From Eledone cirrhosa (lineage: Eukaryota): a DNA stretch of 64,000 bases. The notes under the pieces are model-generated. The model ran no database searches, was not told the origin of the DNA, and was given only the letters and a program-made list of their open reading frames with translations. This document shows positions 21,001 through 64,000 of the stretch, one piece after another; the stretch's first letter is position 1, and the number at the start of each line of letters is the position of its first letter. The position numbers and the translations under genes are program-made. Where the stretch lies: assembly GCA_964016885.1 (NCBI GenBank), contig OZ024756.1, positions 8,804,001 through 8,868,000 of the forward strand. The letters are read 5' to 3'.

Positions 21001-24000
21001 ATACATATATATAGCACAGACACACACATATATACATAGCACACACACACATATATATACATATACATACACACACACTCACACATATACATATACATAT
21101 ATATACATAGCACAGACACACATATATATATACATAGCACACATACACACACACATATACATACACACACACTCACACCTATACATATATACACATAGCA
21201 CACAGACACACACACATATATATACATACACACACACTCACACATATACATATATATACATAGCACAGACACACACATATATACATAGCACACAGACACA
21301 CACACATACATATACATACACACACACATATATATATAGCACAGACACACACATATATACATAACACAGACACACACTTATACATATACATATATATACA
21401 TAGCACAGACACACACACACATACATATGCACACACACACACTCACACATATACATATATATAGCACAGACACACACATATATACATAGTACACAGACAC
21501 ACACACATACATATACATACACACACACTCACACATATACATATACATATATCACAGACACACACATATATACATAGCACAGACACACACTTATACATAT
21601 ACATATACACACACTCACACATATACATATATATAGCACAGACACACACATATATACATAGCACAGACACACACTTATACTTATACATATACATATACAT
21701 ACACACACACGCACACCTATACATATATATACATAGCGCAGACACACACATATATATGTATGTAAAAGGTAAACAGAAACAACACCATAAACGGTACAGT
21801 ACATGCAAGGAATATATTAACAGGAAGAGGGTGTTAATGTTTTAGATGCTAGTCCTTCATCAGATATGTATATATCTTACATATGATTTCTTTTAGATAT
21901 TCAGCTTCTTAAATCCTATTGACCTTGCCCATTGTGCTTGTGTCTGCCGTTCATGGAAGCTTCTGACCAATGAGAGTTCCCTCAGGAGTAAAGTAAGTAG
22001 TACATGCCATATATATATATATAAAACAAGCAAATATAAATTAATATATATGATGAAACACAAGTACCAACATATCTGTGTTTATATTGTAATTTCTTTT
22101 ACAATATAAACACAGATATGTTGGTATTTGTGTTTCATCATATATATTAATTTATATTTACTTGTTTTATACGGCTCAGAAATATTTCTTTCTTTGAGCT
22201 TTTTCATTGTAAAGGAATGCTTGAGTTTTGAACTCAATACACTTAATATATATATATATATATATATATATATCATCATTCATCATCATTTCATTTTACG
22301 TCCACTTTTCTCTGCTTGCAAGGGTGGGACGGGAACAGACTCTGGCTTGATTTTTACAGCTGGATGCCCTTCCTAACACCAACCTCATTTACAGTGAGTG
22401 CGGGGTGCTTTTTTGCCGTAGTACCTCCACGACCACTTTGCACTGGGGTCCCTATCATTTCATTTCTACAGCTGAGGAAAGTAGAGCAATGTGAAATAAA
22501 GTGTCTTGCTCAAGGAAACAACACACCACCTGGTCTGAGAATTAAACTCACAACCTTTCGATTGCAAGGCCAATGCTCTAACCACTAAGCCATGTGCCTC
22601 CATATATATATATATATATATATATATATATATATATATATATATATATATATATATATATATATATATATATATATATATATATATATATATATATATA
22701 TATATATATATATATATATATATAATGTAGAAGTTCTATTTAAATTATTGGGGTACAACAAGCAAATGTTTTTATAACTGATATAAAGCACTCAACAAAT
22801 TATTGGGATAAAAATACGATATTAACAAATGGAAATTATATTTATAAAACCATATTTATTTCATTATACATATTTCATGGACACCAAGTTAAATTATGGT
22901 GTGCTTTCATCCGATAAAATATAATATAGAGCAGTTTTATAAATAAATATTGACATACCCTTAAAGAATGCGACCATTTCTGTTGGAAGATTTTATCTGA
23001 TGAAATCACACCATAATTTAACTTGGTGTCCTTGAAATATGTATAATGAAATAAATATGGTTTTATAAATATAGTTTCCATTGGTTAATATTTCCTATTT
23101 TTACTCCAATAATTTGTTGAGTGCTTTATATCAGTTATAAAAATATTTGGTTGTTGTATCCCAATAATTTAAATAGAACTTCTACATATATATATATATA
23201 TATCATCATCATCATCATCATCGTTTAACGTCCATCTTCCACGCTAGCATGGGTTTGGATGGGAATTTTCCCACTTGAGGCAAGATTGGTTGTCTTGCTC
23301 GTATAGGACTGACTGGCGGGTTTTCTACGGCTGGATGCCTTTCCTAACACCAACCACGTTTACAGTGTGGATGGGAGGTTTTTACCGTGTTACCTACATG
23401 GCCACAATACAGCGTGGACTGTGTGTTTTTTTGTCGTAACACCTACACAACCTCATTTATTTAGGACTGGATGTTGTGGTACCAACATAACTTTACATCG
23501 AAAGGGGTGGTGTGTATGTGGTGGGGGTAGTGGGACGGGGGTGGGGTGGTGGTGGTGTATTTTGGTTAAGAGGTGCCTACTGACTGTAGGTTTCACTTTG
23601 TACTTAGGCAAGGCGGGTCTTCTGTATTACTGCGTAGCGCCAAAGATCTCGGTCCAGTGACATTGTCTTGGAGAGGTGTAAGTGTGTGAGGTCGGAATTT
23701 ATCAAGTCGTCCCAGGTTTTTCTGGGTCTGCCTACTCCGTGGCTACCATCTATTTTGATCACCCTGCACTTTTTTATACAGCTGTTGTCTTTCATGCGCA
23801 TCACGTGACCATACCATCGTAGTCTTCTCTCGAGAAAACAGCATCTGATCCCTCTGATTCCTAATTTCTCACTTAGTTCATTTATGCTTTGCCGTTCACG
23901 TATATTACTATTACACATCCAACGGAGCATGCATGCTTCGTTCCTCTCCAGTCTGCGTATATCCTCTGCACACAATGCCCAAGTCTCACTGCCATGTAAC

Positions 24001-27000
24001 ATTGCTGTTCATATGCTAGCATCATATAGCCTGCCTTTCATTTTTAGAGAGAACCCTTTAGCGGCTAATAGTGGTATAAGCTCTCTGAACTTTTTCCATC
24101 CCGTTCTAACTCTAGTTACTGTACTTTCAGAGCACCCTCCACCACTGATGATTTTGTCACCCAGGTAACGGAAGGTGTCCACTATTTCTATAGAACCATC
24201 TGTACAATGGAATGGGCTAGTATTCTGTGGGCCCTTGCTGCTACTTATTGCACCTGAGCACCGGCCACATATAAAATCTATATTCTTAGTTAGTTTACCT
24301 GTGATCCCACTACATCTTTTATGCACCCATACTTTGCATTTGGGACATAAAATGGAGTTTCTGCCTACTCCTTTCCTACACACTGAGCATGGCCATTTCC
24401 CAGATGGGACCAGTGCCCTATTTTCCTTCCTACATACGAGAACTTTAGTCTTAGACAGGTTAATTTTAAGGCCTTTTGATTCTAGGCCATGCTTCCATGT
24501 TTAGAATTTCTTCTCTAGTTGAGCCATTGATTCAGCTATGAGCGTTAGATCATCTGCGTATAGGAGTTCCCATGGGCAGCCGGTCTTGAACTCCTCTGTT
24601 ATAGCCTGAAGGGCAATAATAAATAGTAGGGGGCTAAGAACAGAGCCCTGATGAACACCAACTTTTACGCTAAACTCTTCACTATATTCGTTGTTAATTC
24701 TAACCTTGCTGACTGTTTCTTTATACATGGCTTGTATAGCTCTCACAAGCCATTCATCAACACCTAGTTTTCTGGGGCGTGGGACTCTGTCAAAGGCTTT
24801 CTCAAAGTCAACAAAAGCTAAGTATAGGGGTTTACTTTTAGCTAGGTACTTCTGTATTTGTCGTACAATGAACTGAGCGTCTGTGGTACTTTTACCTGAC
24901 ACAAACCCGAACTGCATTTCATCTAGATCAATTCGCTCTCTGATTAGTTGCGCTATTACTTTTTCTGTGACCTTCATGACCTGGTCAATTAATTTAATGC
25001 CTCTATAGTTTCCCCTATCTAGGGCCTCTCCTTTACCCTTGTAGCAGTTAATGATGATGCTGCTATGCCAGTCCTTTGGTACGACCCCATTCTGTATGAC
25101 TTGGTTTACTATCCGGGTGACCATAGTATGTCCCACCGTTCCAGATGCTTTCAGCATTTCAGCAACTATTTCCGAAGGCCCAGCTGCCTTGCCTGTCTTC
25201 ATATCTTTGATCACCTTACTTATTATACTACCTTCAACTTGCACTGCTGGTCCCTCTATTGGATCGATGTGGGGGGGGGGGGAACTGTCTTTCTCCCATT
25301 TATTCTCCTCATTTAGTAGCCTTTCGTAATGACACTTCCAAGCTATCTTCTTATCAGCGTCAGTGATGGCAAGTACACCATCATCATTAAGGACACACTT
25401 CTCCCCGACAATATCACGGTTTTTCTTGAAACATTGCCTAGCAATCCTGAACACCTCACGTTTTTGGTCCTCGCGTTGTAGAACATGCTTGAACTTTCTT
25501 TCCTCTGCTTCCCTTTTTGCAAAGTACACTTGTCTCCTAGGTTCCCTCCTGGCCACTTGATAGTGTTCTCTACTTCCCCCATCCTGCCATACTTTCCAAG
25601 CCTGCTTTTTGGCCTTGATTGTCTCCTCCACCTTACTGTTCCACCACCATGTTACTCTCCTGCTGCCAATAGGTCTGCTCCAGCCACAGATTTCATCTGT
25701 CGCCTTCAGCAGGTTAACTTTCAGGAATTCCCACTGTTCCTCTATATTGCTCTTCCTTACTGTCAAAAGCATCAAGTAATATGCTTTTAAATTTGTTACT
25801 GGCTGTGGGGTCCTTTAACTTCCATATTCTTCTCTTCAAGGTAGTCCTCCTCTGTTGTCGAGTACGTCTCGTCCTGACTATGAGGTCACAAACTGTGAGG
25901 CTATGTTGGGAGGTGCATTCTTCATGGGGGAGGGATTTAGTGTTTACAACAGACACTCTGTCACGTCTTCTGGTAAGGATATAATCTATCTGACTGGCGT
26001 GTTCCCCTGATCTATAGGTGATCAAGTGATTGTCTCGTTTTTTTAAGTTAGTGTTACAGATAGTTAGGTTATTTGCGTCACAGAATTCCAGGATTCTGGA
26101 GCCTTCCTCATTTCTAGTACCAAACCCATAGACTGCATGGATTCCGTCATAGCCGTCACAATGTTGTCCAACGTGACCATTTAGGTCGCCAGCGATAATT
26201 ATGTAGTCATTGTCGGTTATTTGGGAGGTAGTGAGCATTAACAACTCATAGAATCTGTTTTTTATAACGCCAGGCAGTCCGGATTGGGGTGCATATGCAG
26301 ATATTATTGTCACAGTAGTTCTATTGAAGACATGTCTTATTTTAATTATTCTGTCGTTCACTCTATTTACGTCTATTATTTTATCTGCCCTTTTTTCTGC
26401 TAGCATGATTCCTACTCCACCCAGCCCATTGTCATTTCCCACCCAGAAAAGCTTATAGCATCGTTTTTTACCCACAATGAATCTAGCAGACCCACCCCTC
26501 CACCTGGTCTCTTGAATACAGCAAACATCGACCTCCTTACGTTCAAGCATTTCTACAACCTCGTTAGAGCGACCTACATTCATGGTACCAACTCTGAAGT
26601 TTTGGATTGCGTTTGGTGGGTGGGAACGGTGGGGCGCAGGGAGGGGGGAGGGAGATGGGGTTATGTTAGCCATCCGTGGCCGAAATAAAGAGGAGGAGTC
26701 CCTGCATTCTCGTCCGGCAGCACGAGGTGAATTTGTCTTTATCTTTGGCATTGTCACTGAGTGTCCAGATTTTTTGATTTTTTTCAGACTCTCCAGAATT
26801 CCGTAGTCCATCCATCATATCGAAAGGCAACCAGGTCTAAACTTAAGAAGTGATAGCATAGGCTGCTGACTTATGATTGGTCCAAGTAATAATGGTGGTG
26901 AGTGGGGGCGGGTATGAGGGATATGGGGTAGTTAGCGAGAAGGTTTAAATAAAATCCTCGAATTTGGGCATAATTGAACAAGCATATAATAGTAATAAGA

Positions 27001-63686: not shown

Positions 63687-64000
63687 GTGAGTATTTTTCT
63701 GTAATTAATAAACACCTTTAATGAATACCTTTAATGAATTAATAAACATTTTTATTAATTCATTATTTCATCAAGATAAACTACTCATATATTTCCAATT
63801 CCACCCTGCCCGTCCCCTCAATCTATCTTATTTCTCATTCTGATGAAGGACTAGCGTCCGAAATGTTACGACCCTCTTCCTGCTATATCAAGTGTTAACC
63901 TAATATATACCTTCCATATACTGTACCGATTGTGTTGTTATTTCTGTTTACCTTTTACATACATACATATATATATATATATATATATATGTGTGTATAT

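Follow-up and report, generated by a model that had tools for sequence, protein, structure and literature searches.

What are the long inverted repeats that crowd the introns of one gene in Eledone cirrhosa, and how did they arise? The question is raised by a 64,000-nt stretch of that genome (GenBank assembly GCA_964016885.1, contig OZ024756.1, positions 8,804,001 to 8,868,000, forward strand), hereafter the window, in which positions are counted from the first letter. Several of these inverted repeats, or foldbacks, carry motifs of type I hammerhead ribozymes. The evidence set out below makes it probable that the foldbacks are insertions of Penelope-like elements (PLEs), with at least three families being 5'-truncated copies of Hydra-clade elements, and that each insertion was made by two reverse transcriptases (RTs) starting at two hairpins of one transcript. 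A narrower proposal, which is favored with less assurance, is that the duplicated hairpin, GCUC-stem-UN-GAGCAC, is an undescribed signal conserved across animal phyla. Each copy would dock one subunit of an RT-endonuclease (RT-EN) dimer and fix a start a few bases upstream, one RNA thus seeding two complementary DNAs (cDNAs). The foldback elements add members to a known clade, and their architecture is known as well. The new part is the hairpin itself, RCUC-[stem]-loop-[stem]-UN-GAGY.

The foldbacks of the window

Self-BLAST of the window recovers all nine inverted repeats that a sequence-only reading had listed (22021, 22725, 52578, 55105, 56858, 57462, 57819, 58855, and 59497), most of them beside (TA)n, together with two more (36622-37529 and 52915-53115). 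Exon matches place the nine in introns of a single gene, as had been claimed. Arm identity in the listed foldbacks is 84-98%, with families D and H, near 80%, as exceptions. The foldback insertions, assigned to families by letter, are as follows.

22021-22246: family E insertion; foldback 22021-22171, tail 22172-22246; start hairpin 22174-22199 (+); arms without hammerhead
22725-23188: family A foldback, exceptional in that both arms are tailed; intact hammerhead core on the + strand only, at 22997 (predicted cut after 23045, +), the core of the opposite arm being mutated; hairpin 23103-23122
36622-37529 (+): family I, a Hydra-clade PLE truncated at its 5' end; short arm, inverted, 36622-36670; remains of an endonuclease 36668-37189; hammerhead-like motif 37368-37418, its core reading CAGAAGA; hairpin 37446-37491; tail ending at 37529
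52577-52900: family D; foldback 52577-52833, then tail; atypical hammerhead about 52636-52733 (-); hairpin 52835-52854
52915-53115: family H; foldback 52915-53034, then tail; hammerhead in the arms reduced to its 3' half; hairpin 53040-53063, one closing pair mutated
55104-55282: family C2, related to C; foldback 55104-55235, then tail; hammerhead intact in its 3' half only; hairpin 55235-55254
56858-57292: family F; foldback and tail; CUGANGA core absent; elsewhere mostly solo
57462-57702: family C; foldback 57462-57629, then tail; hammerheads 57565-57615 (+) and 57476-57526 (-); hairpin 57640-57658
57719-57909: family G foldback; left tail; right arm cut by another repeat; position 3' of the family's hammerhead
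58856-59247: family A foldback; left arm short, right arm tailed; hammerheads 59051-59115 (+) and 58899-58963 (-); hairpin 59163-59182
59497-59934: family A foldback; left arm tailed; hammerheads 59826-59891 (+) and 59630-59695 (-); hairpin 59563-59581 (-)

All the foldback families occur as dispersed repeats in the 3.0-Gb genome. First-look searches return hundreds to thousands of candidates per family; 40 candidates were scored per search, and copy numbers are therefore not derivable from these figures.

A twin hairpin at the insertion ends

When 300 genomic loci were scanned automatically for foldbacks with unequal arms, 207 candidates emerged, which fall into 44 clusters. The hairpin is found at the start of the tail in 17 of these clusters, compared with 0.58 expected from shuffled tails. 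Within the window, strict matches are present at the short-arm ends of families E, A (four copies), I, D, C2, and C. Moreover, in families A, I, and E, copies that read through the tail reveal a second hairpin past it. The fixed ends of the insertions fall just before these two hairpins: at 141 (27) and 233 (32) of the 74 family A ends, with hairpins at 144 and 237; at 110 (22) and 198 (12) of the 35 family I ends, with hairpins at 113 and 202; and at 79-83 (10) and 162 (10) of the 22 family E ends, with hairpins at 86 and 166. In these three families each hairpin lies 3-7 nt past its fixed insertion end, outside the inserted DNA, at end positions that are uncertain by the few bases shared with the TA repeat.

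Metagenomic sequences provide a test that is independent of how the hairpin motif was found. A protein search returned 95 relatives, all but one unnamed. Among the metagenomic relatives (78 in all), those with 90 nt before the open reading frame (ORF) have the hairpin there in 46 of 55 cases, against 0.6 in shuffled sequence and 0 of 267 ORF windows. When 150 nt are available (n=48), 30 relatives have two hairpins, 13 have one, and 5 have none; the paired hairpins are 55-83 nt apart, before the start codon. These relatives also contain 16 distinct (TA)n ends, three of which have a read-through copy on the same contig, and all three end 0-5 nt before a hairpin.

An alignment of 33 hairpins has changes on both sides at 6 of 8 pairs, G-U pairs kept in the inner stem, and a one-sided bulge; its rows were selected by motif, and the pairing figures lean towards structure as a result. 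By eye, the hairpin is seen in the printed consensus ends of coral and sea cucumber Hydra elements, and a variant of it in those of copepod and octopus elements (PMC8557442 supplement). The main text of PMC8557442 has no mention of a hairpin or stem-loop, and an Rfam search of 10 element loci leaves the hairpin unmatched. Likewise, no published description was found in literature searches, whose coverage stopped short of subscription journals, Repbase notes, and bioRxiv supplements. Together, the positions of the hairpin and its recurrence in metagenomic relatives suggest that it likely tells the RT where to start.

Two arms and a single tail

The foldbacks share a common layout. The arms meet at their 5' ends, the 3' ends face outward into (TA)n, and the center is specific to each copy. 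Extra sequence (the tail) is present on one arm only in 94 of 96 pairs having both ends on (TA)n (185 loci examined, duplicate loci removed), a count in which tail-less pairs are under-sampled, several genome searches having used tail-bearing queries. By family, single tails are found in A 31/31, C 29/30, D 5/6, E 10/10, H 11/11, and I 8/8. Pairs chosen by coding sequence rather than by tail give the same picture (A 16/16, I 8/8). Of the 16 long family A copies, 11 have the tail on the inverted arm and 5 have it on the downstream arm.

The sequence-only reading had treated the foldback itself as the mobile unit. This is not the case, because the centers are copy-specific and the arms are closest within an insertion; the foldback is an insertion product. 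In family A, 31 pairs have 31 different spacings (1-4600 nt), and arm identity is 98.5% within a locus versus 93.2% between loci, as expected if both arms were copied from one template. The fixed symmetric ends and inherited interior of a miniature inverted-repeat transposable element (MITE) or foldback DNA transposon are absent here: ends are asymmetric and centers differ from copy to copy. Insertion centers often fall on template sequence that is self-complementary. In family H they are clustered (gap -1 to 11, a range that the query favored) within the long stem II of the hammerhead, with the detail varying. The architecture itself is published, both as an inverted 5'-truncated copy with a one-sided tail (PMC8557442) and as palindromes at the junction (PMC3846280).

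Coding partners and the Hydra clade

The foldbacks had been called non-coding and Penelope-derived. The second part holds and narrows to the Hydra clade on the basis of protein motifs and linkage to RT-EN sequence; the first part is not supported for A, C, and I, since longer copies of these families join the arms to RT-EN coding DNA, and it may still hold for D, E, F, G, and H. In the window, 36668-37189 (family I) encodes a GIY-YIG-type endonuclease. Family I is large and young, since all 150 scored genome matches are 94-100% identical, and its open frames reach 702-726 aa; those of family A reach 680 aa, and family C has RT, thumb, and endonuclease sequence. In all 20 extended family A loci (20 of 29 non-source loci), an arm lies in sense 1.0-1.8 kb downstream of RT-EN, and in 16 of the 20 an inverted arm lies upstream of it. 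At one locus (L173), the inverted arm directly abuts a cut RT. For family C, an endonuclease in sense lies upstream at 5 of 8 long loci. A pseudo-long terminal repeat (pseudo-LTR) arising from a partial tandem directly precedes the ORF at family A loci L212, L213, L217, L222, L224, and L230 and at family I loci L165 and L167.

The Hydra clade is defined by an RWK-like motif, DKT, a CxCx5C linker, CxxC and CxH around E and N, and by the lack of CCHH (PMC8557442). Family I contains RWR, DKT, CNCRNRADC, CDLC, and CKH; family A contains RWR, DKT, CNCRNKSNC, CDLC, and CRH; both are without CCHH. In family C, whose N-terminus was not recovered, the CxCx5C linker and CDLC are seen. Judged by these motifs and by likeness to published Hydra proteins, on which the assignment rests, the arms of families A, C, and I represent the 3' ends of Hydra-clade PLEs that code for protein. 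A Neptune-type ORF was considered and dropped, as the motifs fit Hydra. Nothing significant came from Pfam, searched with the endonuclease and with the whole ORF, or from PDB, searched with the ORF.

The likeness to published Hydra elements such as Hydra-1_Obim and Penelope-13_HM (PMC8557442) extends beyond the motifs to a single ORF with RT and C-terminal GIY-YIG, a canonical hammerhead close to the 3' end, insertion into (TA)n, and an inverted 5'-truncated copy. The supplement of that paper includes an octopus Hydra family and Penelope-13_HM with an inverted 5' copy and a hammerhead on both strands. The differences are that the 3' untranslated regions of A and C are 1-2 kb, longer than in the published elements under 3 kb, that family I has a CAGAAGA core, and that the twin hairpin goes unmentioned in the main text of the paper.

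A proposed two-start model of insertion

How might such a foldback be made? In the proposed mechanism, read-through RNA from a tandem copy would carry, in order, the hammerhead, hairpin 1, the tail, and hairpin 2. A dimer of RT-EN would bind both hairpins, nick both strands of (TA)n, and prime on the AUA/UAU just 5' of each hairpin; one RNA would then seed two cDNAs, one per target strand. These would stop independently and join head to head, often via a stem in the template such as stem II of the hammerhead. An early stop of both cDNAs would leave a short foldback whose arms each carry a hammerhead. The two-start model would account for a single tail, the occurrence of the tail on either arm, high arm identity within a locus, and variable centers.

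Much of this has precedent in the Anolis Poseidon element (PMC11167929), in which RT has two internal start sites, one on either side of the tail, both strands of an AT-rich target are cut and extended, the protein is a predicted dimer, and the hammerhead is dispensable for insertion and requires protein for cleavage. Poseidon differs in that it belongs to another clade, its start region lies inside the ORF, and that region is an AC-rich stem-loop; the available text describes no repeated signal at each start and leaves the inverted arm unexplained.

Several observations weigh against the two-start model or against the generality of the hairpin. No strict hairpin is present in 27 of the 44 clusters, some of which are detection artefacts, and real families (F, G, and two others) have a partial motif or none. 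The motif-based choice of aligned hairpins and the under-sampling of tail-less pairs, both given above, also count here. Within-pair and between-pair identities do not differ in family I and barely differ in C and D (88% within and 87% between in D); the poor contrast is found in very young (C, I) and old (D) families. Families E, F, G, and H are not linked to a coding partner, and family D has one unconfirmed candidate among 20 loci (L285, with an endonuclease in sense 1.9 kb upstream). The copy at 22725, with its two tails, is cleanly accounted for by neither two starts nor self-priming. Finally, the Anolis start region is published as an AC-rich stem-loop, and the hairpin motif is not seen in supplementary figure 1 of PMC11167929.

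The alternative that survives best, and which is nonetheless unlikely, is the published reading (PMC3846280, PMC8557442). The inverted arm would arise when the cDNA primes itself, possibly on an antisense template; the tail would come from resolution by the endonuclease, and the hairpin would be a DNA site for that enzyme. The frequent location of centers on self-complementary template, and of family H centers in hammerhead stem II, would suit self-priming, and the tail of the Drosophila virilis element is reported to be necessary for endonuclease recognition (PMC11167929). However, a simple snap-back would leave two equal ends, and the ends are unequal in the 94 of 96 pairs; the distribution of tails between inverted and downstream arms in the long A copies also argues against it. 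A DNA site does not account well for a hairpin that keeps G-U pairs and a one-sided bulge and lies outside the inserted DNA at both ends.

Less probable still is a reading in which each foldback moves as a palindromic, non-autonomous unit, or is MITE-like. The short family H copies with centers in a narrow range (again, favored by the query), the lack of a linked coding partner for E, F, G, and H, the resemblance of a family E tandem array to a retrozyme, and the many first-look candidates per family would all suit such units. Against this, each copy has a center of its own, arms of family A pair best with the other arm of their locus, families A, C, and I run on into coding DNA, and a lone foldback could not template its own tailed end because hairpin 2 is outside the inserted unit.

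If the two-start model is correct, a single rule yields the tail, the inverted arm, and foldbacks genome-wide, and the hairpin would be a portable template-start signal of 20-30 nt for a telomerase-related RT. The origin of Penelope-like tails and inverted repeats has been named an open problem (PMC8557442). The twin hairpin predicts both insertion ends, which makes that origin directly testable and supplies a sequence rule for finding ends. In addition, truncated retrotransposons that appear as short palindromes in (TA)n can be mistaken for MITEs or for microRNA-like hairpins. Insertion of this kind would fill a 3-Gb genome with near-perfect intronic double-stranded RNA (dsRNA), which might plausibly supply ADAR substrates.

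Hammerhead motifs and the idea of a locked ribozyme

The type I hammerhead motifs claimed for the window are real. A descriptor finds 10 strict matches, compared with a mean of 0.075 in 40 block shuffles. Six belong to family A, two to family C, and one is solo at 27571; the tenth, at 43910 (-), lies inside a Helitron-like ORF, has a 4-bp stem I, and was treated as chance. Hammerheads outside the foldbacks are found in the following features.

27533-27578 (-): solo type I hammerhead within a short partial-tandem, retrozyme-like repeat of about 27380-27850; no foldback here
53975-54190 (+, host pre-mRNA sense): solo family A arm; intact hammerhead 53991-54055; hairpin 54105-54124; no adjoining inverted partner
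63780-63960 (+): family B solo repeat; degenerate hammerhead near 63840; neither foldback nor tailed

The claim that the foldback form puts a ribozyme on both strands is true of three of the nine listed foldbacks (57462, 58855, and 59497), in which the core is intact on each strand. The remaining six have a core on one strand, half a motif, or none. One intact core is present at 22725 (+) and at 52578 (-); in the latter, from family D, stem II is about 70 nt long and stem I is interrupted, and the core was read by eye because that stem II exceeds the limit of the descriptor. The motif is half or degenerate at 55105 and at the additional foldback 52915, and no hammerhead is present at 22021 and 57819, both of which are cut 3' of their family's motif. 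Family F (56858) lacks CUGANGA within 70 nt in all 30 arms from 25 loci.

In terms of families, the CUGANGA/GAAA/UH core with stems I-III is found in A and C and is atypical in D; the full type I core is absent from the window copies of E, F, G, H, and C2. In family I, which is very abundant and young, 73 of 76 arms read CAGAAGA, with A in place of U4, and the motif is hammerhead-like. In an alignment of 32 A-type sequences, stem II has changes on both sides at 9 of 10 pairs, with 90.5% of cells paired, and none of 500 shuffles pairs as well; the rows are motif-selected and related, which leans the figures towards structure and makes them supportive without yielding a probability. The Rfam comparison that had been proposed as a check gave 94 matches in the window at E<=5, nearly all to sub-threshold microRNA families and none to a hammerhead. 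Because 10 loci of coding elements are likewise unmatched, Rfam is blind to this form of hammerhead.

The hammerhead near 63840, which lay within the span previously assigned to the foldbacks, belongs to a family (B) that has a foldback in 0 of 20 loci and no coding partner seen there. Its hammerhead has a 4-bp stem I, and the repeat has a single fixed 3' end on CA/TA repeats; further window copies are near 21760-21870, 36090-36275, and 54590-54790. The 27571 family has a clean minimal hammerhead, with a 7-bp stem I and a palindromic stem III, and two fixed ends without the standard start hairpin. Its assignment to a neighboring long interspersed nuclear element (LINE) was rejected, since among the loci listed a LINE start lies downstream in the window copy only.

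Family F (56858-57292; loci L047-L070) shares the layout of tail and (TA)n, but it lacks a hammerhead core and its 5' part is repeated internally. It could be a remnant of Naiad type.

Minimal metazoan PLE hammerheads (PMC4209133) share with those described here a palindromic stem III, an extra base after A9, and a variable, covarying stem II; in Schistosoma, hammerheads on opposite strands occur as pairs 100-700 bp apart (PMC4209133). Compared with these, family C has a 4-bp stem III, which is predicted to allow folding as a monomer, and the stem II of family D is longer, at about 70 nt. Non-LTR retrozymes (bioRxiv 10.64898/2026.07.22.740005) are non-coding tandems of type I hammerheads derived from PLE pseudo-LTRs, and the 27571 family and a family E array are like them. 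Retrozymes are head-to-tail and are reported to be excluded from introns, whereas the foldbacks are head-to-head and those of A, C, and I are derived from coding elements; thus, the foldbacks are not the non-coding head-to-tail arrays by which non-LTR retrozymes are defined. The family E array (L177, G000:C18:11598000-11606000) consists of 539-nt head-to-tail units, about 15 in 8 kb with more beyond, with a hammerhead-like motif and both hairpins.

What, then, of the proposal that the foldback locks its ribozymes into dsRNA and is tolerated for that reason? Sequestration is plausible because forming the hammerhead inside two foldbacks carries a predicted cost of 79 and 96 kcal/mol, and predicted folding energy is the only support for the ideas of a locked ribozyme and of ADAR substrates. 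As a reason for tolerance, sequestration is weakened; it is unneeded because a solo sense hammerhead is present, the arms decay freely, and the ribozymes are weak. Such hammerheads are reported to be weak when alone (PMC4209133, PMC11167929). In the two-start model, the hammerheads would be passengers of the pseudo-LTR that, in an intron, are predicted to be either sequestered or too weak to matter.

A related idea is that selection keeps the intronic foldbacks, either because pairing disarms the ribozyme or because they supply ADAR substrates. Whole foldbacks are predicted to have 78-96% of their bases paired (61% in family I, which has a long spacer), the head-to-head arrangement means that an antisense arm is transcribed first from either direction, and repeats are major ADAR targets in animals (PMC9989829). 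Retention by selection is nevertheless hardly credible, given the intact solo sense hammerhead at 53991-54055 in the same pre-mRNA, the free divergence of arms in old families, the lack of an A>G excess in all five sets of genomic copies (a result relevant to edited templates only), and an insertion mechanism that by itself already yields foldbacks. One of the five sets has 0 A>G versus 15 T>C mismatches (p=0.0009), with the changes scattered over the copies.

About 40 distinct hammerhead signature groups are present in 1.3 Mb of repeat-centered flanks (loci L001-L300), indicating a genome very rich in such motifs.

The host gene and other repeats of the window

The gene whose introns hold the elements is recognized by its leucine-rich repeat (LRR) exons.

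34870-63690 (+): host gene; exons match F-box/LRR proteins; every element intronic
near 34870, 39321, 40327, 54920, 60270, 61596, 63141, and 63604 (+): LRR exons of the host gene

This F-box/LRR-type gene is presumably FBXL13. Inside one of its introns, pieces of an ORF at 41900-47300 (-) are, judged by motifs, presumably a Helitron-like Rep/helicase. A tandem unit of 69-72 nt occurs inside another dispersed repeat (39460-40234, 40951-41184, and 47329-47719) and is inverted at 39748, forming a further long palindrome. LINE fragments encoding endonuclease-RT, with CAT-repeat ends, are found in both orientations at 23590-26814, 37922-38750, 53346-53970, and 55573-56297; they include inverted pairs of 725 nt that are 17-31 kb apart and could also form dsRNA. 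Large minisatellite arrays with units of 26, 48, 20, and 40 nt occupy 1-14956, 16628-19596, 29877-34852, and 48405-49967, respectively.

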